Positions 2,860-31,977 of a stretch of DNA of 63,115 nt are shown here, piece by piece; positions within the stretch are counted from its first letter, which is position 1; the number at the start of each line of letters is the position of its first letter. A program made the translations under genes and the position numbers. A model generated the notes under the pieces. That model saw only the letters and a list, made by a program, of their open reading frames with translations, searched no databases and had not been told where the DNA came from. This DNA is from a virus (taxonomy: Duplodnaviria > Caudoviricetes): IMG/VR virus record IMGVR_UViG_3300036715_000947, positions 1-63,115 of that record, one strand, 5' to 3'.

Positions 2860-3100
2860 CTTTGTCTCCTGTCTTGTTGATGGGACCTAGCTCTTCCATC
2901 ACTTTTCCCGCTCCGAAGGCCCACTTGGCGAAGTCGAGGAATTTTTCTGTGCCCTGCTGGCAGTAGGCGGCTACGTCAGGTCGAAGCACACCGACAATCC
3001 ACATGGACACAGCTATGATGAGCGCGATGAGTGAGGCAATGCGCGTGAATGACCAGTTTCCGCGCTTGTCCTTTAGCCAGCCTTCCGGTTGAGTGTTCAT
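2849..3100 (-). CDS. putative holin
   Basis: 83 aa with hydrophobic helices; ATGA overlap with the endolysin stop. Confidence 0.6.
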   Translation of the reverse strand: MNTQPEGWLKDKRGNWSFTRIASLIALIIAVSMWIVGVLRPDVAAYCQQGTEKFLDFAKWAFGAGKVMEELGPINKTGDKDGQ

Positions 3101-3537
3101 GCCGCATCCTTGATGGTGAGCCAAACTTCGTCATGGCTTTCCAGCGCCTTCTTGACCATGGCGAAAAGCTGTGGAAGCACGACAGAGCCACCGTGGATGC
3201 GCGTGTCAGAGTCAGTTACTTGGCCCACCCCGATGCAGCCCAGTGTATCTTCTGCTGTGTTAAGGCTGTGGATGCGAATGCCGGTAAACCCAGGAACATC
3301 GTTCACCAGCAGCATGTCCTTCTGGAACTTCGGACTGAAGGTTATGGTGATCTTGTAGCGGCCCGCCGGTATGGCAGTCTTCCCGTACACCTTCTTGCCT
3401 TCGTCTTCCGGTGTGGAGGGGTCGTCCACACGCACCTGGTCTTCGAGCGTGTAACAGAAGTGGGCGCCACTTTCCAGAAACAGGTCGCCTAGTGTGGTGT
3501 CGTCTTTGCTCGGCTTGCGTTGAAGTAAAAGTTCCAT
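3097..3537 (-). CDS. putative endolysin, DUF5675-like
   Basis: Motifs TLGDL..FCYTLED, TAIPAGRY, VPGFTGIRIH..N...DTLGCI; strong AGGAGG SD. Confidence 0.8.
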   Translation of the reverse strand: MELLLQRKPSKDDTTLGDLFLESGAHFCYTLEDQVRVDDPSTPEDEGKKVYGKTAIPAGRYKITITFSPKFQKDMLLVNDVPGFTGIRIHSLNTAEDTLGCIGVGQVTDSDTRIHGGSVVLPQLFAMVKKALESHDEVWLTIKDAA

Positions 3538-3574: not shown

Positions 3575-4009
3575 TTATGATACCGCCGCGATCAAGGCAG
3601 CCTTGCCACCAAGTGCCTCTATCAATACCTGCGGCGTCCACCCTCGCGCCTCGTGGTCCAGGCCAAGGACCAGGGCCGCGAACTCGGCACACTCCCAGCC
3701 CGCATGGTCCCCAGGATCTCCTAGGCCCGCCAGGATCGCGTCCTTGGCGGAGTAGTGGTCCCCGAGGTGCTGGAGGACCATGGGCACGTCAACGGTTCGC
3801 CCGGTGTGGAAGACAGTGGGGGCGTCCTTCATGCGGTTGCGGAGGGCGTGGCAGGACACACCGCCGATGGCGCGGGCCTCAAGGACCAACGGCTCGCCAT
3901 CTACCACCCAGAGCACCCCGCAGTGGTCCCAGGCGCTACGGGTCCACCAGCGAATGACGGCGGCTACGGGGCCTCGCCCTCGGAACATGACTAGATCGCC
4001 GGTCTGCAT
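3575..4009 (-). CDS. permuted papain-like (YiiX/YebB-type NlpC/P60) enzyme
   Basis: GDLVMFRG...TRSAWDHCGV (His first) and ECAEFAA (Cys later). Confidence 0.75.
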   Translation of the reverse strand: MQTGDLVMFRGRGPVAAVIRWWTRSAWDHCGVLWVVDGEPLVLEARAIGGVSCHALRNRMKDAPTVFHTGRTVDVPMVLQHLGDHYSAKDAILAGLGDPGDHAGWECAEFAALVLGLDHEARGWTPQVLIEALGGKAALIAAVS

Positions 4010-4471
4010 CTAGGCCCCCATGCTCACGGCCTTGTCCGTCGCCACGATCCAGGCCCGCTGGCTCTCCCAGGTGGTGTCGGGGATCATCCCGGCCTTGGCG
4101 AGGTTGGCGCGGTAGATCGCCGCGTAGTTCTCGGCGGGCACGATGAGGGCCTGGAGCCCAGTGGCCGCGATCCCAGCCGAGGCCCAGGCGGCGATGGCAT
4201 CGGCCTCGGCGCAGGTCGGGTTGGCCTTGATGTAGTCCACACTCGCGGACTTTCCGGCGAACCGCTCCTGCCGAAGAAGCTGGTCCACACTGGAGAACTC
4301 TCCGATAGAGTCAAGCCCCTGGAGAGACGCCACAACGGGCACCTTTGTGTTGTAGTTCTCCACCTGGAGCTTGGCGATGGAGGCGGCGCACTGATCCACC
4401 AGAGCCTTGGCCTGGATAAGTGCAGCCTCCTTTCCGTTGAGAAGGGCGAGGGTTTGAAGGGCGTCAGCCAT
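4010..4471 (-). CDS. hypothetical protein downstream of the tail tip gene
   Basis: 153 aa ORF with GGAGGAG SD. Confidence 0.75.
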   Translation of the reverse strand: MADALQTLALLNGKEAALIQAKALVDQCAASIAKLQVENYNTKVPVVASLQGLDSIGEFSSVDQLLRQERFAGKSASVDYIKANPTCAEADAIAAWASAGIAATGLQALIVPAENYAAIYRANLAKAGMIPDTTWESQRAWIVATDKAVSMGA

Positions 4472-4486
4472 GGTAGGCTCCTCCAG

Positions 4487-7400
4487 CTATTGTGGCTTCA
4501 CATTGTGAGATACCACGCCAAGCGTGGTGTAAGTGTGGACGCGATTGACGGTGATCTTGACGACAGGCCCGTAAACGTCGGCCCGTGCGGACTCTACAAC
4601 TAGGCCGTTCGTCAGCACATCGCCGTGGACCAAGTGCTGTAGTTCTTGCCAGCGGCCATCGCCGAGTAGGAATCGGTGATTGGCAGCGAACCTGCCCGTG
4701 CGCCCGTTGGAAAGCACAAGCAGCCATCGGTGGTTTGTGCTCATGGATGCGTGTGTGACTTCCTCAACGCACACGCACCCTTCGGATTCGTCCCAGGCCA
4801 CAACACGGTCGCCAACGCGGACAACACCCGATGGCTTCTCGGTGCCGTCGGCCATGAGCAAAGGCACATCAGGAGCAGGACAGTTACCTCCACCACCCGT
4901 TCCGCCACCCGTTCCGCCACCCGATGCCCCCGTGATACCTGACGGCCAAGACGTGCCATTGTCCGTGAGCGCGGTGCCGACAGTCCACCCAGACGCGGAG
5001 TAGAAGCAATGGGTGTCGCTCGATCCCGCCGCGCCGTAGAGTGTGACCTTGCACGCCGGGACTCCTGACAGAATCGCCTCAGCGATAACCTGTGTGGCAT
5101 AGGACGCGTTCCCGGCATCTGAATCGCTCGTCGGGTTGTAGTAAATACGGTCCCCAAGCGGGCAGTAGTAGACGCCCCTTGCGGTCAGCGTGGCAGTTGT
5201 ACCAGCGGCGGACTGGCTGAACAACTCGATCTTGGCGTAGGAGAGCCCATCCAAATTATCCGTGTATGAATTTGGCGCCAGCTTGAGATCGATGCGCCCC
5301 ATGTAGGGGCTGGCTACCTGGTAGAGCCTTGGCGTAACGGTTAGCTGAGAAATGTTGGGGCGTCCGCCATTGGTGCCAGGGTCATTACTGCCCCGATAAA
5401 AGCACCGGAATGACGTTCCAGCCTGCCCGTTGTCGCCGATGGCGCTCATGGCACGGGCGGTCAGACCAGACAACTTATAGCCTGCGAGATTGACGCCGTA
5501 GCCTAGTTCCATTTGCGCGGTGAATGTTTCGCCGCCAAGTAAGGTTGAAGGAAAACCACCCGCGCTGATCCTGAAACCGATGGGCGCCGAGATGGCCGTG
5601 CCCGCATGGTATCCGTTCTCGTCCGAACCGCTCCGCATGTCCAGCGAGTAAAGCAACGGCACCCGCGCCACGAGTGCCTGGAGCGTGCCGTCCACAATCA
5701 TGGAGGCGTCGGCCATGCGGCGGGCGTATAGGTTGTCGAACCAGTACCACCCAGATGGCTGTGCATCGTTCACTTCGAGGTATATGACCATGAGCACCGC
5801 GCCCGCTGGCGCGGTGCCAATACATGAGGCTTTGGCATAAGAGGTTGAGCTAACTACAGTCGGCGAGCCCCAGCCAACTGTATTGTTTGCGGCGTCCCGG
5901 AAATAACAACCCATAGCCTGCATACCTGGGCCCTGAGACTTTGCCATGCACTCCATGTAATATTTGTCACCAGCAGCACAGGGGATGTGGGCCAAGTCTG
6001 TGCCGCTGTAAGTTCCGTTTGTGTGGTACACCGCGCGGGCGTAGTCCCCCGAGAAGGCGTTAGGCCCGGAGTGATCCAGCCACGCCGCTTCAAATGAGCC
6101 AGCAGGCCAGCCACCGGTAGGCGGAGTTTGATCGCTGGTCCCATTGGGGATCAGATTGTCGAGGTTCGTCACCGTCAATTGGCTAGAAATCAACTGCCCG
6201 AATAGCCCCGTTGCCGCCACCAGCACATCAGTCCACGCCGTGCCTGCCGCGTTGACCTGCACCGTGCGGGCGTCCGTGGTGATGGCGTAGTAGCCTGCGG
6301 GATAGCTCGCATTCGGCAGCGCGGGCTTCGACGCATAGGCCCACGCGACCTGATGCGGCTGTGAAGCGAGTTGCACGGCGTTTGCCTTGTTCGTGGCATC
6401 CGTCGCCGCCATGCTGATCGCGTTCTGCGCCGTGCCCACCGCGATGGCGTTCCGAAGATCGGCGGCGGCATTCTTCACGGCGGTCCACTTCGGGTTCCAC
6501 AGGGCCACGCGATTCCCGGTGCCGAGCGATGTGGTGCCGCTGAGTGAGTTCCAGGCCGTGGGGCTGGTGAGCGTGGAGAGGTAGGACATCAGCGCGGAAT
6601 AGGCCGTGTCATAGGTGGAGTGGCTCACGCTGTAGGCATTGGCCTTCGCCACGAGGTCCGCGTTCTCGCCCGTGATCGCGTTGTAGTCGAGGATGATCTG
6701 CGGCTTCTCGCCCGTGGTCAGGGTGTCGGGATCGTTGATCGTGTTGACGCCGGACTGTGCCGCATCCACGTCTGACTGTGACACGGTGCCAAACGCACCA
6801 ACGGATATCCAGTCAATGGCTACCGATGTTCCTAGATCATTGATGAAGTCGAATCGGAGGGCGAGAACATTCCCGCCGGTCATGTAGTCAGACCCGCCCA
6901 CAGTGAGTGTTCGCATGTCCGCGACGATGGTGGTCCAGACGCCTACGGTTGGGGCTGGAATCACTTTGCGGTAGCCAGAGTTCTCACCGTGACCGGCATT
7001 ACTTGGGTAGATGACACCTTCCCATGGGCCTGTAATGAGTTTGACCCGCATGGCGATTGCGTAGGATTTTGTTGGGTCCAGGTTCAGCCCAGTAAACCTT
7101 AGATTTTGGTCAGCAACCGTGTTGGTGATTGTCGTGGTCGTCCCATTGTCACTCGATGCGACGGTGCCTGGGAATGTGACACCGGCAGGAAGGCCACCGG
7201 AGAAATCTTTGAAGAGAATCGGCTTGATGGGTGAGCCAGCCAGATCGTTAGCCGCATCCGCAAGGGCCTTCGCCTTGGCATAGATCGCATTGAGAAGGGA
7301 CTGCCTGTTGGAATACACATCGGCGAACTTCTGCCGGAAGGTGGTTCCCACGATGGGCACGTCTGAGCCGGGGATGACGTTCCAGCCGGGTAGTGTTCCG

Positions 7401-10078
7401 AGGTAGGTGGTCAGAACTGAGACGGCAACGTCGTAGGACGTGCGGCTCACTCCGTAGGCATCTGCCTGGGCATCAATTCCGGCTTGCTCATTCGTGATGT
7501 TGGTGTAGTCGAGTACTACGGCTGATTTTTCTCCAGAGCTGAGAATGTTGTCCGAGGCGATGCTAGCGAGTCCATCCAATGCGGACTTGATCCAATCAGG
7601 CTGTGTTGAGCTTGCCACCACGGTGTAGGAGCCGCTCGCCCATTCGGAGTTTCCAGACTTGTAAACACCACACACCCGCACGGAGTAGGTGCCCGGCTGC
7701 ACGTCGTCGAGTAGCGCGGTAGGTCCTGTCACCACCATGTCAGTCCACGGACCAAAGTCACGCGATGCCTGAGCATGGTAGCTAGAGGCGCTGTCTTGGT
7801 CCCAAGAGGCCATGAGCACTTGCACATTGCGATCTTGAAGTGTGCGTGTAGTGGCGATGATGCTGAGGTTGGCGGGGACGGCGATGGCCGTGCTGGTGTC
7901 CTTCCGTGGGATCGTGTCGCCAGCAATCAAGCCGAGCATGGCGTACTTCGCCGGGTCATGCCGCAAAGCCGACACAGTGTATGTAAGGCCCGTGTCCTTT
8001 GTAACATCTGTCACCCTCCACAACGAATCCGTAGTGGGTGTGCTGAGCAACCACGAAGTGCCCGCAGCCGGTGCAGAAGAAAACGGAGATGACACGCTCA
8101 AGGTAGAAGTCGTGCTTGCCGGTGTGCTCACTGGCTTGGTTTCAAGGCCAACAAGCGTTTGGCACGAGAGCGTGTAGGAGGTGCCGGGGGCGAGTGTGAC
8201 TGGTGCGTCCAAAGTCACATTGCTTGCGTCGGAAGCAGAGATGATGCGCCCACCGATGCGTGCGTGCCCCGCGCGGAATTGATCACTGATGCTGATGATG
8301 TCGCCAGGGTAGACTACAGAGCCTTCCAGTCCAGAGGAAAACGACACCAGCTCTGAAGCAAGAAGCTCTGTGAGTATTGCCCACTTGCATAGGCGAAGCG
8401 CCTGTCCGTGCGAAGTGCACCCAATGGCGGACAGATTGAGGACATTGTAGCCATAGCGAGAAATGCCGTCCTGGTCCTCGTACACGGCAACGTCGGAATC
8501 ATACCCTAGCTCTGGATTCAGGAACGTAGCAATCGCCACCGTGTGTCGTGCTTGCTTAGCTGTTCCTTCGTACCTGAACGCTCCGCCCTCTACGTTGGCA
8601 TTCGTGAACACCGCGGAAACCACATCGTCTGTGTCGGCCACCGCAGTGACAAGCCCACTCGCGTAGTACGTGACGCCCCAAAAGATCGAGGCCATGTCGG
8701 ACAGAGCCTTGATAGCATTCTGCTGGCCTTGGATGTAGATGTTGGCACTCATGCGGGGCTCAAGGCCCATCTTGCCATCGTCCACCAATGTGTCGCACCA
8801 CTGGCCGATGTTGTACAGGCTCCATTTGTCTAAGTTCGTTGCCTGTAGGAATGTGCCGCTGCCATAGCGGGTGGAAGTGGCCATGTCGTACCACACCCAC
8901 GCAGGATTGTTGCACCAAGCCATTTTGAACGACCCATCCCAAGCGCCAGCGGTAGTGCCGGGGCCGGTGGTGGCGTAGTTCGCAAGCCTGGTTATTGTGC
9001 GCCCTGGTGCCGAAGCCTCAGTTACCGGGGAGCCGCCCGTGGTGGTGAGCACAAGGTCAGAAACATTGGAGATCGTAAATGTGGAGTTGTTGGCCGCGTT
9101 TGTGAAGCCAGTCGTAGTAATCTGCTGACCAACCACAAAACCATCGTCAATAAAGCTGCCCACGTCTCGCGTGAATGTGTGCGCCGTACCGTCCACTGCT
9201 ACCTTGTTGGGGCGGAACGGCTCACGAGGTGTGTAGTTCGCAGGCACTTTGATTTTGAGAAGTTTGGCAACGACCGTTACCTGCGGAATGGACTTGAACT
9301 GTTTTGAATTGACGCGCATTGAAAGCACAGCGCTGTTTGGGTAGCGCAGTCTCACGTCAATGATTTCAGTAAACGCCTCCCACCATGTATCGCGTAGGTT
9401 GTACGCAGTAGAGTCAGGCGACAAGCGCGTGACGCGAATCTGCCATGTTCCGGTAGGAACCGGAAGATCAACATGATAGGTTTTAGTGAACTTCGTAGAG
9501 AACGGGCCGCCAGTGATTACGCCGTTGCCCTCAAGCACAACCGCCGTCCACGCCCCACCCATGTAGCCAGGATTCTGGATTTCGATTTTGATCTGTACTG
9601 TGTTGCCGGAGGTGTTGCCGTTACTGGAGTCTATTACCTTGAACTGGTTCGGCATTGAGATGCGCACGCGCACTGCCGACGGGTTGGTGGACGTGGAGCG
9701 TACTACTGGCGTTGCCTGGAACACCTGAACGCCAACGACAGTCTCAGACTCGGACCCCGCGATGCCTTTGATCGCGGGCTGTGTGTTCGTTCCGGCAACA
9801 AGGGCCATGGCGAAGCCCTTGAAGTTCTTTGTAACACCATCTCCAGATAGCACAGGGGTGCCATCCAGGTACACGCTCTTCAAACCTTCGTAGAGCCCCG
9901 CGATAGGTCCTTCGCCTAGAAGAATCTGGAGTGTTCCAGTCTCGTTTACCGTGGGGTCCAAGTAGGACGGGCGTCCTACCGGGCCGCTCCCGCCACCACC
10001 TCCTCCTGGTCCGCTTGGCCCGCTAAGCCAAGAGGAGCCGCCTCCGCCATCACTTGGATCTACAACGCTAGTGACCAT
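4487..10078 (-). CDS. J: tail tip / host specificity protein (lambda J-like) with FN3 and carbohydrate-binding-like modules and a C-terminal Hint domain
   Basis: LGEGPIAGL..SVYLDGTPV, LRYPNSA, WDGSFK.AW.NNPAW, FTNANVEGGAFRY motifs; follows M-L-K-I. Confidence 0.92.
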   Translation of the reverse strand: MVTSVVDPSDGGGGSSWLSGPSGPGGGGGGSGPVGRPSYLDPTVNETGTLQILLGEGPIAGLYEGLKSVYLDGTPVLSGDGVTKNFKGFAMALVAGTNTQPAIKGIAGSESETVVGVQVFQATPVVRSTSTNPSAVRVRISMPNQFKVIDSSNGNTSGNTVQIKIEIQNPGYMGGAWTAVVLEGNGVITGGPFSTKFTKTYHVDLPVPTGTWQIRVTRLSPDSTAYNLRDTWWEAFTEIIDVRLRYPNSAVLSMRVNSKQFKSIPQVTVVAKLLKIKVPANYTPREPFRPNKVAVDGTAHTFTRDVGSFIDDGFVVGQQITTTGFTNAANNSTFTISNVSDLVLTTTGGSPVTEASAPGRTITRLANYATTGPGTTAGAWDGSFKMAWCNNPAWVWYDMATSTRYGSGTFLQATNLDKWSLYNIGQWCDTLVDDGKMGLEPRMSANIYIQGQQNAIKALSDMASIFWGVTYYASGLVTAVADTDDVVSAVFTNANVEGGAFRYEGTAKQARHTVAIATFLNPELGYDSDVAVYEDQDGISRYGYNVLNLSAIGCTSHGQALRLCKWAILTELLASELVSFSSGLEGSVVYPGDIISISDQFRAGHARIGGRIISASDASNVTLDAPVTLAPGTSYTLSCQTLVGLETKPVSTPASTTSTLSVSSPFSSAPAAGTSWLLSTPTTDSLWRVTDVTKDTGLTYTVSALRHDPAKYAMLGLIAGDTIPRKDTSTAIAVPANLSIIATTRTLQDRNVQVLMASWDQDSASSYHAQASRDFGPWTDMVVTGPTALLDDVQPGTYSVRVCGVYKSGNSEWASGSYTVVASSTQPDWIKSALDGLASIASDNILSSGEKSAVVLDYTNITNEQAGIDAQADAYGVSRTSYDVAVSVLTTYLGTLPGWNVIPGSDVPIVGTTFRQKFADVYSNRQSLLNAIYAKAKALADAANDLAGSPIKPILFKDFSGGLPAGVTFPGTVASSDNGTTTTITNTVADQNLRFTGLNLDPTKSYAIAMRVKLITGPWEGVIYPSNAGHGENSGYRKVIPAPTVGVWTTIVADMRTLTVGGSDYMTGGNVLALRFDFINDLGTSVAIDWISVGAFGTVSQSDVDAAQSGVNTINDPDTLTTGEKPQIILDYNAITGENADLVAKANAYSVSHSTYDTAYSALMSYLSTLTSPTAWNSLSGTTSLGTGNRVALWNPKWTAVKNAAADLRNAIAVGTAQNAISMAATDATNKANAVQLASQPHQVAWAYASKPALPNASYPAGYYAITTDARTVQVNAAGTAWTDVLVAATGLFGQLISSQLTVTNLDNLIPNGTSDQTPPTGGWPAGSFEAAWLDHSGPNAFSGDYARAVYHTNGTYSGTDLAHIPCAAGDKYYMECMAKSQGPGMQAMGCYFRDAANNTVGWGSPTVVSSTSYAKASCIGTAPAGAVLMVIYLEVNDAQPSGWYWFDNLYARRMADASMIVDGTLQALVARVPLLYSLDMRSGSDENGYHAGTAISAPIGFRISAGGFPSTLLGGETFTAQMELGYGVNLAGYKLSGLTARAMSAIGDNGQAGTSFRCFYRGSNDPGTNGGRPNISQLTVTPRLYQVASPYMGRIDLKLAPNSYTDNLDGLSYAKIELFSQSAAGTTATLTARGVYYCPLGDRIYYNPTSDSDAGNASYATQVIAEAILSGVPACKVTLYGAAGSSDTHCFYSASGWTVGTALTDNGTSWPSGITGASGGGTGGGTGGGGNCPAPDVPLLMADGTEKPSGVVRVGDRVVAWDESEGCVCVEEVTHASMSTNHRWLLVLSNGRTGRFAANHRFLLGDGRWQELQHLVHGDVLTNGLVVESARADVYGPVVKITVNRVHTYTTLGVVSHNVKPQ
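4502..4882 (-). other. C-terminal Hint (bacterial intein-like) domain, 127 aa, in the tail tip protein
   Basis: CPAPDVPLLMADGTEKP..VRVGDRV start, AANHRF block B, L.HGD, VVKITV..HTYTTLGVVSHN end, then VKPQ-stop. Confidence 0.85.
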
Positions 10079-10087
10079 GACGAATCC

Positions 10088-10774
10088 TTACGGGGCAACT
10101 GCACAAACCCATGGAGTGGTGGAGCCATCGCCTCCGATGGTTCCGTTATTGTCCGGCGCTAGTCCGCCGAAGCCCTTGTCCTGAAATGCCATGCTGTCAA
10201 TACCGGCGCTGATTACGTTGCCGCCAATTTTCATCAGGCCGTAGCCCAGCGGAACTGGACCTCCCTGTCCCGTTGTGAGTGCGGGAGCGTTGAACGACCA
10301 TGTTTCTGCGTCCTTGTTGTTCATGCCACTTCCCGTTGTCGGTGGCTTAGACAACATTGAGACAGCACCGGCCAACATGAGCGCATTGCCAGCTGCGTAG
10401 AAATAGTCACTGACGGCAAACGCCCACGACTGGAAGTAGAAGGCACCGGCCACGTAGAACGCGGCTGCAAGCGCATACATGATCAAGCCAGGTATGAAAT
10501 TCTTCAGCCCTCCGTGTGCGCCTGAAACAAGCGGCACGATCTTGACCACCTCTGCACTGCCGATGGGATACATGACAGTTTCCGGAGACTGGTCAACTCC
10601 GTCCACAACTACTCTGTAGTCCGTGGTGTACTGTGTGTCTCGGATGTACTGCTTGAAGCCTGGAACAACACTGGCCAGCGCGTGCACGGCCTCTGCAACA
10701 GATTCCACTTCTAGCGTGAACTCGCGGCCAAACCTTTTCCGAAGTTCCCCGTACAGAATCACAACTTTCAGCAT
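10088..10774 (-). CDS. I: tail assembly protein I (ubiquitin-like)
   Basis: LYGELRKRFGR..EAVHAL, IVPLVSG, TTGQGGPVPLGYG. Confidence 0.9.
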   Translation of the reverse strand: MLKVVILYGELRKRFGREFTLEVESVAEAVHALASVVPGFKQYIRDTQYTTDYRVVVDGVDQSPETVMYPIGSAEVVKIVPLVSGAHGGLKNFIPGLIMYALAAAFYVAGAFYFQSWAFAVSDYFYAAGNALMLAGAVSMLSKPPTTGSGMNNKDAETWSFNAPALTTGQGGPVPLGYGLMKIGGNVISAGIDSMAFQDKGFGGLAPDNNGTIGGDGSTTPWVCAVAP

Positions 10775-11439
10775 ACTGGCCTCGCAATGAACGAAACACT
10801 TTCAACGAGTCGGCCCATGTTCTCGACCAATCCCAACTTTCCGAATGGCTGGTGTGCAATCATGCCGTTGCCGACGTATACGGCACAATGATCGTTGTTG
10901 ACTCCACGGATATTGAACACAATGAGATCACCGGGCTCCGGCTCGCCCGTACCAACCACTGTGGCGGCTCCGCTGCGCAGCCCATCAGTGAACAAGTCTT
11001 CAGAGCGCCAAAACTCGGGCCTGCGCAAAAAGTCTGGAAGTTCCAGCATATCGGTGGCCACGGTGTAGCAATCCTGCACGCCCCAAACGAAGGCGTGGCC
11101 GAGTGGATTCCATGAAGCAGGAACAAGGCGCTTCCACGTACCGTCCATGGAGAACACCCACCACGGAACACTGCCTAGATCGCACTGTGCTTGGTCATGG
11201 CAGTACTGGTCACCACCTCCGTGCGTGTGCGAGTGCACCACGCCAAGAATGTCTCCCTTGTCTTCTGCGGCGACCCAATCGGAAGGATCGATGGTGAAAT
11301 AGTCGTGAGCACCTCCGATATTGTTGCAGGGAACATAAACAGGGAGCCTGTCTCCGCCCAACACGATGAGCCCGCACGACTCATCAGGGGCACACGCACG
11401 GGCGTGGTCCATGATGGCAGTGTGTAGGTCAGGAGTCAT
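10768..11439 (-). CDS. K: tail assembly protein K (JAB + NlpC/P60)
   Basis: HA..CAPDESCGL, VVHSH, FVWGVQDCY, HCAVYVGNGMIAHQ; start set at MTPDL (ATGA overlap). Confidence 0.9.
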   Translation of the reverse strand: MTPDLHTAIMDHARACAPDESCGLIVLGGDRLPVYVPCNNIGGAHDYFTIDPSDWVAAEDKGDILGVVHSHTHGGGDQYCHDQAQCDLGSVPWWVFSMDGTWKRLVPASWNPLGHAFVWGVQDCYTVATDMLELPDFLRRPEFWRSEDLFTDGLRSGAATVVGTGEPEPGDLIVFNIRGVNNDHCAVYVGNGMIAHQPFGKLGLVENMGRLVESVSFIARPVC

Positions 11440-29634: not shown

Positions 29635-31977
29635 CTACCCGCCTACTGAGGCAAGAAGTGACTTGGAAATCTTGAGCGGTGCACGGCGCATGGTGACAAG
29701 CTCAAGCGCTCCCATGAACGCGTCCACATCATCGTCTTTCGCTGCGTTGGGGAAGATGGCACAGCTCTCGACGAAATCATGCGCCCACTTGGTGCCCTTC
29801 AGGATGCGCACCAGACCTGCCTCCTGGATAGGCGACACCACATTGGCACGAAGCACCTTGTCTGTGGAGTGCACCACCTCCACAAACGGGATGCGCGTGA
29901 GGCGCGATAACGCCTGTATGACCGCCTTGCCCGTGGCAGAGCCGCCACCTTCGATGCCCACCTGCGACGGTCGCCATTTGTCGTACAGTTGCTCGACCTT
30001 GCGCTCCAACTCAGGGAACTCGATCTTCTCGCAGAACAGATCGAGCATGACGTAGCCGTCCTTGGCTATGCCCATGGTGACGCAGGCCGCGTTGTCGTTG
30101 CTCTGCTTGCCGCCTGCCGCCGTGTCCCAGTACTGAATGATCTGCTCCAATTGGAAGAAGACTTTCAGCCTCTCCACCTCATCGCCACCAATGCGTACAT
30201 CGGCGGGTGGCCCAGAGACATATTTCCAATTGTCGCGCAAGAAGATGACACCCTCTGCGGCAGACGGCCTCTGCTGATAGAGACTGGCCCACACACGAGA
30301 GCCCGTGCCTACTTCGTCGATGTCACCAGACCCGTAGCGTATGCGGTTCAGCGCTTCGATGGGATAGCGTGCGGGGTGCAGCGCCTCACCTTTGCGGCGA
30401 TACTTTTCGTCCTCTTCCGCAATGGCCGGGTACTTGGCAACCTCCCATTTCTCGCCGCCCTTGCCCATGGCCGTGAGCAACCGACCAGCTAGATCGTCGG
30501 CGTGCCATCGAGTGTTGTGTGCCACCAAGCCGTTTGCGATGAAATTCTCTGTGCCCTCTACCTCAATATCGAAGACCTCTTGCTCACCAACGGGCTCGAT
30601 GGCGCAAATTTCATCTTCGGTGAAGTCGTAGATATTCGGCGGCAGCGCTGAGAATTCGTGAAGTCTTTCCGTAGCCAACTGCGAGGTTGCAGTCGTTGCA
30701 CAAGAGTCCTCGCGTCTTACCGGTTCGGTGGTCGTGGTCAACGCATAGCTTGGCGTCCCAATGAGCCCTTGTGTTTTGACTGGTAGGTGGCTTCCGGCAA
30801 ATGGCGCACTTTCCTCCCTGCTGTTTAAGAAGCGCGTCGAACTCTTCCGCAGTAATGCCGTAGCGATATTTGAGACGCGACGCCCTGCGCGATTCAGGAT
30901 TGACTGAAGGCGGTCGCACACCATTCGCCCAGCGGGTTTTGTTGTAGTGAGATTTGCAGAGTCCTTTGCAACTGACTGGCTCCGTACACCCATCGACAGA
31001 GCACTCAACTCCGCGCCAGTGGCCGTAACTGACACTAGCTTGTCGCCCACTTTGAGATTTCTTAGCCTTGTCCATACAAGCGCCTCGCTCCTGCGAACGA
31101 GGAAAGGGTGGCGTTCGTTCGCTTTCACAAGCCTACCTGAACTCGTTCTGATTTCATAGCAGAAATCAGAACCTTGGCTCTTCCAATGTTTTACGAACGA
31201 CGTTGACAGCGCACCCTTATTGAACGTTGCAATCTCATCGCCAGCACGAACATCAAGCATGGGCTTCTCTGTGCCATCGGCCATCAACACCGGAGTGTCG
31301 CCAGTGACACACATGATCAACAGAATGCCGCCTCCGGGCTCTGCGCGAGTCTTGAGTGTAGTCTCGTACCAGTCCCAAATACTTTGACGCGTAGTGACAG
31401 AGTACGCCTCCTGCGCGTCCTTAACAGGATCATCGATCATCAACACGCGTGCTCCACGGCCCGTGACGCCCGTTCCCACGCCCGCGCTCTTGTACGCACC
31501 CTTGTGGCCCACAATCTCGAACTGTTCAGAATTGCGCAAGAACGAGCCCTTGGACGTAACAGTGCGCACTGACGAACTGCTCAAGGTGGTGTCGGGGAAC
31601 AACTGCGCGTACTCTTCCTGATCAATAATCTTCTGCACGTCACGATTCATCATGGACGCGAGATCATTCGAGTAGCTGGTTGCGATGAACGTCAGGTCAG
31701 GGTAGCGCCCTAGCGCATACGCGGGAAACCGCCTGGACACCATCTCAGACTTGCCCGAGCGAGGCGGGGCCATGATCATCAAGCGCGGAGACTTGCGATC
31801 AATGACATCTTGAAGGAATTGGTCTAGCTTTGCCGCCAACTCGTAATGAAACCAGCCAGCGTTGTAGTCGCTCTTCGTCCAGAGGATGAACGCCAGTAGA
31901 TCGCGCTTCGCCTTGGCGCGTATGGCGTCAATCATGCTCAACTTTTCGGCGCGGCTTAGCGTCTCCAGTTCAAGCAC
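29635..31977 (-). CDS. terL: terminase large subunit precursor containing a 266-aa intein (spliced product about 514 aa)
   Basis: Walker A MAPPRSGKSE, Walker B LMIDDPVK, LIM|TRWH.DDL.GRLL, nuclease WDTA and DDDVDA. Confidence 0.95.
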   Translation of the reverse strand: MLELETLSRAEKLSMIDAIRAKAKRDLLAFILWTKSDYNAGWFHYELAAKLDQFLQDVIDRKSPRLMIMAPPRSGKSEMVSRRFPAYALGRYPDLTFIATSYSNDLASMMNRDVQKIIDQEEYAQLFPDTTLSSSSVRTVTSKGSFLRNSEQFEIVGHKGAYKSAGVGTGVTGRGARVLMIDDPVKDAQEAYSVTTRQSIWDWYETTLKTRAEPGGGILLIMCVTGDTPVLMADGTEKPMLDVRAGDEIATFNKGALSTSFVKHWKSQGSDFCYEIRTSSGRLVKANERHPFLVRRSEALVWTRLRNLKVGDKLVSVTATGAELSALSMGVRSQSVAKDSANLTTTKPAGRMVCDRLQSILNRAGRRVSNIATALLRKSSTRFLNSREESAPFAGSHLPVKTQGLIGTPSYALTTTTEPVRREDSCATTATSQLATERLHEFSALPPNIYDFTEDEICAIEPVGEQEVFDIEVEGTENFIANGLVAHNTRWHADDLAGRLLTAMGKGGEKWEVAKYPAIAEEDEKYRRKGEALHPARYPIEALNRIRYGSGDIDEVGTGSRVWASLYQQRPSAAEGVIFLRDNWKYVSGPPADVRIGGDEVERLKVFFQLEQIIQYWDTAAGGKQSNDNAACVTMGIAKDGYVMLDLFCEKIEFPELERKVEQLYDKWRPSQVGIEGGGSATGKAVIQALSRLTRIPFVEVVHSTDKVLRANVVSPIQEAGLVRILKGTKWAHDFVESCAIFPNAAKDDDVDAFMGALELVTMRRAPLKISKSLLASVGG
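30514..31311 (-). mobile_element. intein in terL
   Basis: Begins CVTGDTPVLMADG, block B ANERHPF, L.VGD, ends VFDIEVEGTENFIANGLVAHN; +1 residue Thr. Confidence 0.93.
30611..31075 (-). CDS. Endonuclease VII-type (His-Me finger) homing endonuclease nested out of frame inside the terL intein
   Basis: C..DGC...KGLC..HY zinc finger, LKYRYGIT.EEF..LL..Q.GKCAIC, LCVDHDH.TGK.RGLLC..CN.A.G; AGGAG/GAGG SD before ATG. Confidence 0.9.
   Translation of the reverse strand: MDKAKKSQSGRQASVSYGHWRGVECSVDGCTEPVSCKGLCKSHYNKTRWANGVRPPSVNPESRRASRLKYRYGITAEEFDALLKQQGGKCAICRKPPTSQNTRAHWDAKLCVDHDHRTGKTRGLLCNDCNLAVGYGKTSRILSAAAEYLRLHRR

Follow-up and report, generated by a model that had tools for sequence, protein, structure and literature searches.

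A candidate self-removing Hint domain at the end of a J-like phage tail-tip fibre

For host recognition, tailed phages depend on the distal end of the tail fibre, and to our knowledge the only self-processing fibre ends use an unrelated Ser-Lys intramolecular chaperone domain. The window analysed here, the whole of a complete 63,115-base IMG/VR virus record (IMGVR_UViG_3300036715_000947; CheckV completeness 100), encodes a J-like central tail fibre or tip attachment protein that carries a Hint domain (J Hint below) only four residues from its end. What would such a domain do there? We put at roughly 60% the probability that J Hint is an autoprocessing module of the bacterial intein-like (BIL) or PT-HINT type that would remove itself from the fibre tip, a reading drawn from sequence; the last 131 residues of the protein are probably a catalytically competent Hint, not an intein, tethered by poly-Gly to a distal domain predicted to be a trimer. 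The parts concerned are as follows.

4487..10078, minus strand: gene of the J-like central tail fibre or tip attachment protein that carries the Hint (1863 amino acids; open reading frame (ORF) list and translation)
4925..5446, minus strand: distal beta-sandwich domain, about amino acids 1545–1718 (AlphaFold; predicted homotrimer)
4883..4924, minus strand: Gly-rich linker SGGGTGGGTGGGGN, amino acids 1719–1732 (translation; predicted local distance difference test (pLDDT) below 50 in the model)
4502..4882, minus strand: Hint domain, amino acids 1733–1859 (profile against PDB, AlphaFold, Foldseek, conservation, ratio of nonsynonymous to synonymous substitution (dN/dS))
4880..4882, minus strand: Cys1733, first residue of the Hint (placed by script on the translation)
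4676..4678, minus strand: block-B His1801, in FAANHRFL (placed by script on the translation)
4502..4507, minus strand: His1858-Asn1859, with the Asn codon at 4502..4504 (placed by script on the translation)
4490..4501, minus strand: four-residue C-terminal flank VKPQ, with Val1860 at +1 and Lys at +2 (translation)
4487..4489, minus strand: stop codon TAG of the J-like gene (translation)

The C-terminus of the protein reads ...SGGGTGGGTGGGGN1732 / C1733PAPDVPLLMADG...FAANH1801RFL...VVKITVNRVHTYTTLGVVSH1858N1859 / VKPQ-stop, with Asn1732 at position −1 of the scissile bond predicted at the N-terminus of the Hint. The original prediction had read this end correctly in every detail: Asn1732, Cys1733, the Gly linker, the Cys at Hint position 1 (Cys1), the block-B His, the terminal His-Asn, the Val at +1 and the four trailing residues are all exact on the translation. 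It had also held that the domain cannot splice canonically, and this stands; class 1 intein splicing is impossible because the +1 residue is Val1860, which is no nucleophile. J Hint nevertheless has all the residues for an N-S acyl shift (Cys1 and the block-B His) and for Asn cyclisation (His-Asn), and it carries Ala at the block-B Thr position and Lys at the block-F Asp position, a point on which the original prediction was silent.

The carrier had been labelled a tail tip protein, a label that holds. Pfam places FNIII-A_GpJ at amino acids 109–241 (E = 2.2e-27) and Phage-tail_3 at amino acids 451–609 (E = 7.7e-17), the PHROG family phrog_31 'central tail fiber J' matches with E = 9.8e-189, and genes resembling I, K and L together with a tape-measure gene, all recognised through PHROG, lie upstream. 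On these domains, this match and the preceding tail genes, the protein is by its sequence a lambda-J-like tail-tip fibre, without being a lambda J equivalog; against NCBIfam lambda_TipJ it scored 357.8 bits, under the cut-off of 1950.

Curated models give little sign of the Hint. With Pfam, no Hint-clan family was found at E ≤ 1 in the whole protein, and its last 157 residues scored 13.5 bits against Hint (cut-off 29.7), 13.6 against PT-HINT (cut-off 27.7) and 12.8 against Intein_splicing, the cut-offs of these three families ranging from 27.7 to 35.8 bits; Hint_2 was absent from the same residues even at E ≤ 10. A hidden Markov model search with Hint, PT-HINT and Hint_2, originally proposed as the check on this domain, thus fails when used alone, and a single-sequence search of the PDB with J Hint reached E = 0.027 at best. 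Because curated models and single-sequence search both stayed below threshold, profile and fold evidence was needed. With phmmer, run exhaustively against 1.84 billion representative proteins, 730 relatives of J Hint were found at E ≤ 1e-3, of which 101 reached E ≤ 1e-10 and 11 reached E ≤ 1e-30. Thirty-nine of these relatives (alignment A1) were made into a profile which, compared with the PDB, matched 8w20_A, a PT-HINT-bearing 'Intein C-terminal splicing domain-containing protein' (E = 1.1e-17); 4o1r, the NpuDnaB intein (E = 2.1e-17); 2lwy, a BIL domain of C. thermocellum (E = 1.7e-12); 6y75, Tetrahymena BIL2 (E = 2.8e-11); and 1at0, Hedgehog (E = 0.0069). AlphaFold2 with alignment A1 gave a pLDDT of about 97, ranging from 94 to 98, across amino acids 1733–1859 and below 50 in the linker. 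Foldseek with this model returned 62 PDB matches at E ≤ 0.001, all of those listed being inteins, BIL domains or Hedgehog, led by BIL2 (E = 2.1e-9, template modelling score 0.73) and then DnaB mini-inteins, with BIL 2lwy at 4e-7 and Hedgehog at 2.3e-5. A second, two-domain model placed NpuDnaB first, and the order of BIL2 and DnaB inteins is therefore uninformative. The relatives' profile (E = 1e-17) and the predicted fold (E = 2e-9) together identify amino acids 1733–1859 as a genuine Hint-fold domain, a match far beyond chance and in agreement with the original prediction. Pfam models at present miss most members, which leaves this Hint family invisible to routine annotation.

Conservation was assessed in 152 proteins, made up of the best 150 of the 730 phmmer relatives and two more; 22 fragments or partial matches were dropped, leaving 130 proteins with 147 full-length Hint copies. 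In the alignment of these copies with J Hint, Cys1, the block-B His and the final Asn are present in 148/148 and the penultimate His in 147/148, while the block-B Thr position holds Ser in 67, Thr in 53 and Ala in 24, and the block-F Asp position Lys in 60, Arg in 27 and Asn in 22. A +1 nucleophile is rare (9/147 related copies; Thr in five, Ser in four, Cys in none), Lys is found at +1 or +2 in 133/147, and at least four Gly stand among the ten residues preceding Cys1 in 71/147. After the last Hint, 60 of the 130 proteins have ten residues or fewer, 16 have 11–30 and 54 have more than 30; in the 60 short-tail proteins the tail is of 3–10 residues and never of 0–2. In a midpoint-rooted FastTree tree of the Hint copies, read without inspection of branch support values, most short-tail forms group into a small number of large clades that are separate from those of the payload and tandem-array forms, although some lie scattered among the latter clades. 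PT-HINT matched eight of ten payload-bearing relatives at E < 0.001, four of them over the cut-off. Because these payload-bearing relatives match PT-HINT, the nearest curated family is, as judged from sequence, PT-HINT or A-type BIL, with the tail-fibre Hint clade outside the current model. Among the 43 relatives of at least 502 amino acids with a terminal Hint, Pfam found Phage-tail_3 in 17, FNIII-A_GpJ in four, Rcc01698_C in three and Phage_Tail_Tip and PB4_spike in one each; PT-HINT was found in only six of the same proteins (E < 0.001) and Intein_splicing in only four. Fifteen related proteins (among P0024–P0089 and others; for example P0028, P0025 and P0030) carry two or three full tandem Hint copies, sometimes joined directly (...VHN/KGGGC...), with no obvious cargo between them.

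In BLAST comparisons of the J protein with Hint relatives, homology mostly begins well upstream of the Hint, at about amino acids 1490–1600, and AlphaFold of amino acids 1480–1863 gave an all-beta domain at about amino acids 1570–1720 (pLDDT 85–94). Three copies of amino acids 1545–1732 were predicted to form a homotrimer, with an ipSAE of 0.96 against 0.00 for the best of three controls, at least 95% of contacts agreeing between runs and a partner pLDDT of at least 92; in a calibration that is only roughly valid here, given a custom alignment and three copies, 20 of 30 solved homo-pairs and one of 23 single chains reached the mark. This prediction supports trimerisation of the distal domain without the Hint. 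This domain has no Pfam family and its Atlas matches all lie below 0.9; Foldseek with the two-domain model against BFVD and PDB returned Hint matches only and none for the distal domain. It occurs with linker and Hint at 16 of 16 IMG/VR loci (15 being contigs already found through the Hint) and in six of six matching proteins of 1024–3261 amino acids, the size range searched; no Hint-less allele was found in these 16 viral loci and six long proteins.

In IMG/VR, 65 loci encode a Hint relative, and the 27 at which the match reaches the end of the domain were examined: 22 ORFs (489–1187 amino acids) end 4–12 residues past His-Asn, one is cut by a contig end and four run well beyond the matched stretch. 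At the other 38, left out of this examination, the match covers the first two-thirds of the domain only, and two of these loci, on 59-kb genomes, have the same coordinates as terminase inteins from the phage-record search described below. In close relatives the tail varies with x-Lys kept (VKPQ, IKPQ, VKILS, VKIPPT, IKTT, VKTLT, LKPENP, MKPAP and others). Comparison of the window with 13 related loci gave a Hint dN/dS of 0.08–0.38 (Nei-Gojobori), and the distal domain gave 0.10–0.16 at the 12 computable loci, dS being saturated at L019. The Hint is under purifying selection. At L014–L018 the distal domain is about 85% identical to that of the window (dN about 0.07) and the Hint only about 68–70% identical (dN about 0.33); from this pairing of a close distal domain with a distant Hint it follows, on sequence comparison, that Hint variants have been swapped at the Gly linker or close to it. 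The linker DNA of the window contains a 12-nucleotide unit, GGTGGCGGAACG, twice, a possible recombination site. Distal domain, Gly linker and Hint form a mobile, recombining fibre-tip cassette that ends many tail proteins, leaving only 3–12 residues beyond His-Asn, and that occurs in many uncultured phages as well as in prophages of cultured Sphingomonas.

The chemical steps at this end, and the biological purpose that they would serve, we infer as follows. Cys1733, aided by His1801, would bring about an N-to-S acyl shift at the Asn1732-Cys1733 bond, and the thioester would be resolved mainly by water or a small thiol, detaching the Hint and leaving a mature fibre with a flexible Gly tail that ends at or near Asn1732; cyclisation of Asn1859, aided by His1858, could also cut off VKPQ. 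J Hint would then be a self-removing C-terminal pro-domain of the fibre-tip cassette. Active autoprocessing is argued because the catalytic residues are invariant and the domain is under purifying selection, and a passage in PMC7664689 describes BIL domains as having no +1 nucleophile and mainly N- and C-cleaved products. The original prediction was that the tip is autoprocessed and could be covalently ligated to another molecule or protein; given the Hint fold, the invariant catalytic residues and purifying selection, the first part appears likely, and the second is weighed below. If plain self-cutting is true, it would be a second, independent route of tail-fibre maturation, and annotators would have the rule that the mature tip ends at the Gly linker.

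Several points weigh against this reading. Cleavage is argued from conservation alone, and the J protein scores under every Pfam Hint-clan cut-off. Members of the J Hint clade have Ala in block B (24/148 copies overall) and Lys in block F, and the acyl shift could therefore be slow or conditional. An invariant His-Asn, a near-invariant Lys at +1 or +2 and tails of at least three residues would be unexpected under N-cleavage alone, and these three features point to chemistry at the C-terminal junction too. A long flexible linker and freely swapped Hints, moreover, make a folding-chaperone role a poor explanation of the benefit of a self-removing domain.

It is possible, if unlikely, that the Cys1733 thioester is captured by an amine, giving ligation and not plain cleavage. 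The amine could be in the protein's own tail, on the side chain of Lys1861 or at the N-terminus of Val1860 once Asn cyclisation has exposed it, a BIL-type splice that would keep VKPQ on the Gly tail; or the nucleophile could be foreign (another virion protein, a lipid or a cell-envelope amine), which would yield a covalently modified receptor-binding tip. That His-Asn is invariant and Lys is held at +1 or +2 (133/147) while the rest of the tail varies suggests selection on the chemistry of the C-junction, and a flexible Gly linker with interchangeable Hint variants fits a purely chemical role. Aranko reportedly found in 2013 that an A-type BIL ligates its flanks without a nucleophilic side chain, and an aminolysis mechanism for A-type BIL splicing is said to have been put forward by Dassa in 2004. 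Tetrahymena BIL2, according to section 2.4 of PMC8616854, splices by way of a Lys isopeptide and also couples its N-flank to other proteins; it is among the best structural matches of J Hint (E = 2.1e-9), although its rank over DnaB inteins in Foldseek is not robust, NpuDnaB coming first with the second model. Only four residues follow J Hint, however, leaving no sterol- or adduct-recognition region of the Hedgehog kind; a spliced product would differ by four variable residues without obvious function; and no acceptor has come to light, the protein encoded downstream starting MADAL (Met-Ala, with no Cys or Ser beside the start) and offering no obvious one. By analogy, the Hint might act as a ligase-like device whose Cys thioester moves the poly-Gly C-terminus onto a Lys of its own tail or a foreign amine, which we consider rather unlikely. 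Were this so, a large uncultured phage group would have a covalently modified or reactive receptor-binding tip; passage of the thioester to an amine would make this the first known case of protein ligation at the receptor-binding tip of a phage, and the naturally compact module could serve protein engineering.

Alternatively, the Hint could be kept on the virion, largely or wholly unprocessed, as a tip domain with a structural role or one that contacts the receptor. It lies farthest out on a host-specificity protein and its variants are swapped between otherwise similar fibres, as receptor-binding modules often are; the replacement of the block-B Thr by Ala and of the block-F Asp by Lys in the J Hint clade would suit an unprocessed domain. 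Binding, however, needs no invariant Cys1, block-B His and His-Asn (147–148/148 copies), and the family also turns up in proteins of unrelated architecture, tandem arrays and payload-bearing PT-HINT-like proteins among them, which makes a retained domain quite improbable. A functionless remnant, whether of a degenerate selfish intein near the gene end or of a PT-HINT toxin-release cassette that has lost its C-terminal cargo, is in our view very improbable. Its possible sources are at hand: the same genome has a canonical terminase intein whose block A is similar and which is 35% identical over 93 residues, and 54/130 relatives have more than 30 residues after the Hint, with PT-HINT matched by eight of the ten scanned. 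Yet a dN/dS of 0.08–0.38, a strict coupling of the Hint to the distal domain (22/22), a conserved x-Lys flank and short-tail forms that sit mostly in large clades of their own, not widely scattered among cargo forms, all speak against decay.

Self-removal of J Hint can be set beside several known systems. By analogy, J Hint would work most like an A-type BIL. It has in common with A-type BIL and PT-HINT domains (PF07591) the Hint fold, the N-terminal Cys, block-B His and terminal His-Asn without a +1 nucleophile, and a place in extracellular or variable proteins as opposed to conserved enzyme sites. PT-HINT, in the part of Zhang et al. (2012; PMC3482391) that treats it, stands just before a C-terminal toxin or variable domain, which it releases. 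J Hint differs in its score (13.6 bits, below the cut-off of 27.7), in having a phage central tail fibre as host protein, in being followed by four residues only and no toxin or other domain, in a conserved +1/+2 Lys and in the specific, predicted-trimeric beta-sandwich and poly-Gly linker that always precede J-type Hints; by score and by its lack of cargo it falls outside PT-HINT. With class 1 mini-inteins (NpuDnaB 4o1r, Ssp DnaB 1mi8 and phage terminase inteins) it shares the fold and blocks A, B, F and G, block A being LMADGTEKP in both J Hint and the terminase intein of its own genome, and the cultured-phage sequences nearest to it are inteins of terminases and helicases. Unlike these, it has Val at +1 and sits at the end of a structural protein, not at a conserved catalytic site; of the marks of a class 1 intein, the terminal His-Asn was found, and a +1 nucleophile, a C-extein and, at 16 viral loci and in six long proteins, an intein-free allele were looked for and not found.

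The BUBL BIL2 of Tetrahymena thermophila (6y75, 6tmm) is likewise a non-canonical Hint and a top-tier structural match, and the J Hint family keeps a Lys at +1 or +2; sequence identity is only 17%, however, the flanks of BIL2 are ubiquitin-like domains, and the J Hint Lys would be a nucleophile by analogy only. Hedgehog/Hog proteins (1at0; Hint PF01079) also carry a C-terminal Hint module (fold match E = 2.3e-5), which frees the functional N-terminal part by way of a Cys thioester, as is proposed for J Hint. Hedgehog is not known to have or to need His-Asn, whereas J Hint has a conserved His-Asn and no sterol- or adduct-recognition region. This absence, with 13.5 bits against PF01079 (cut-off 29.7), sets J Hint apart from Hog domains. 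In proposed outcome, not in ancestry, J Hint resembles Peptidase_S74, the auto-cleaving C-terminal intramolecular chaperone domain of tailspikes and tail fibres (see PMC3742443 and PMC8326128). There, a C-terminal domain of a trimeric fibre removes itself after synthesis, as is proposed for J Hint. The folds are unrelated, and a Ser-Lys dyad acts there where a Cys thioester and Asn cyclisation are proposed here; those chaperone domains continue the fibre directly and drive its trimerisation, whereas J Hint lies behind a flexible Gly linker and the distal domain is predicted to be a trimer without it. Pfam found no Peptidase_S74 at E ≤ 1 in the whole protein or at E ≤ 10 in the last 157 residues.

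How widely such fibres occur was examined in phage records, GTDB genomes and the literature. A nucleotide search of 50,697 phage records with window positions 4000..11000 gave no match. A protein search of the same records with J Hint gave 28, of which 24 are annotated, all as terminase or helicase genes, and the remaining four are unannotated Lak phages; a second query, the Hint of a Sphingomonas prophage, gave one unverified and unannotated phage clone from a faecal sample, with a 738-amino-acid ORF that ends in a Hint and eight residues. Neither protein search found a cultured phage with this Hint in a tail gene, the unverified, metagenome-derived clone being the one tail-gene case. Among genomes, one for each GTDB species, two peptide patterns found at least four loci, a lower bound set by the use of these patterns: one contig of a Holophagaceae metagenome-assembled genome (66% identity) and three loci in Sphingomonas. 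In Sphingomonas desiccabilis CP1D (L071) the 862-amino-acid carrier matches the PHROG families 'tail fiber' (3.4e-67) and 'central tail fiber J' and sits among the tail genes of a prophage, upstream of an endolysin, the phage context having been looked at for this locus alone. This J-like fibre ends in a Hint followed by 12 residues. The other two (L069 and L070) are Hint-ending tail-fibre genes on one contig of Sphingomonas sp. Pfam found nothing at E < 0.001 in the Hint-ending Sphingomonas proteins of 877–947 amino acids. A cultured Sphingomonas prophage offers a tractable experimental system. In the literature, searched outside subscription journals and supplementary files, no Hint on a phage tail fibre was found; the relevant passages of PMC3556154, PMC5259590 and PMC7824862 mention phage Hints or inteins in terminase, ribonucleotide reductase and similar genes only. 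BFVD carries UniProt-derived names such as 'Hint domain containing protein [uncultured Caudovirales phage]', and automatic annotation has therefore met related proteins.

The J-like hub and the Hint-ending part are a single fused protein of 1863 amino acids in the window, unlike at L003, L004 and L013, where the hub part (the equivalent of amino acids 380–800) lies upstream of the start of a Hint-ending ORF of 1054–1140 amino acids and, at L003 and L004, also in a different frame. Around the fibre gene, and at the terminase locus, the window contains the following.

4010..4471, minus strand: gene of a 153-amino-acid protein with its own GGAGGA ribosome-binding site, 15 nucleotides downstream of the J stop
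3575..4009, minus strand: gene of a 144-amino-acid protein
3097..3537, minus strand: gene of a DUF5675 protein
29635..31977, minus strand: large terminase (Terminase_6N and Terminase_6C)
30514..31311, minus strand: canonical 266-amino-acid terminase intein (Cys223...His-Asn488, with Thr489 at +1)

At 17 related viral loci a conserved copy of the 153-amino-acid gene comes directly after the Hint-bearing gene; at the nine more distant ones, only the first 85 residues of the protein are alike. It matches no PHROG family and no Pfam family above cut-off, and could be a fibre accessory or assembly protein. A read-through fusion of J to this gene would be in frame in the window but in only eight of the 17 related loci and was rejected; the 153-amino-acid protein, with its MADAL start, is not supported as a ligation acceptor. 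Downstream of the fibre genes lie the DUF5675 protein (6.3e-26) and the 144-amino-acid protein, which matches a PHROG family annotated as enoyl-CoA hydratase/carnitine racemase-like (6.3e-11). The terminase intein has a block A, VLMADGTEKP, that resembles that of J Hint, and a true intein and a non-intein Hint are therefore found in one genome.

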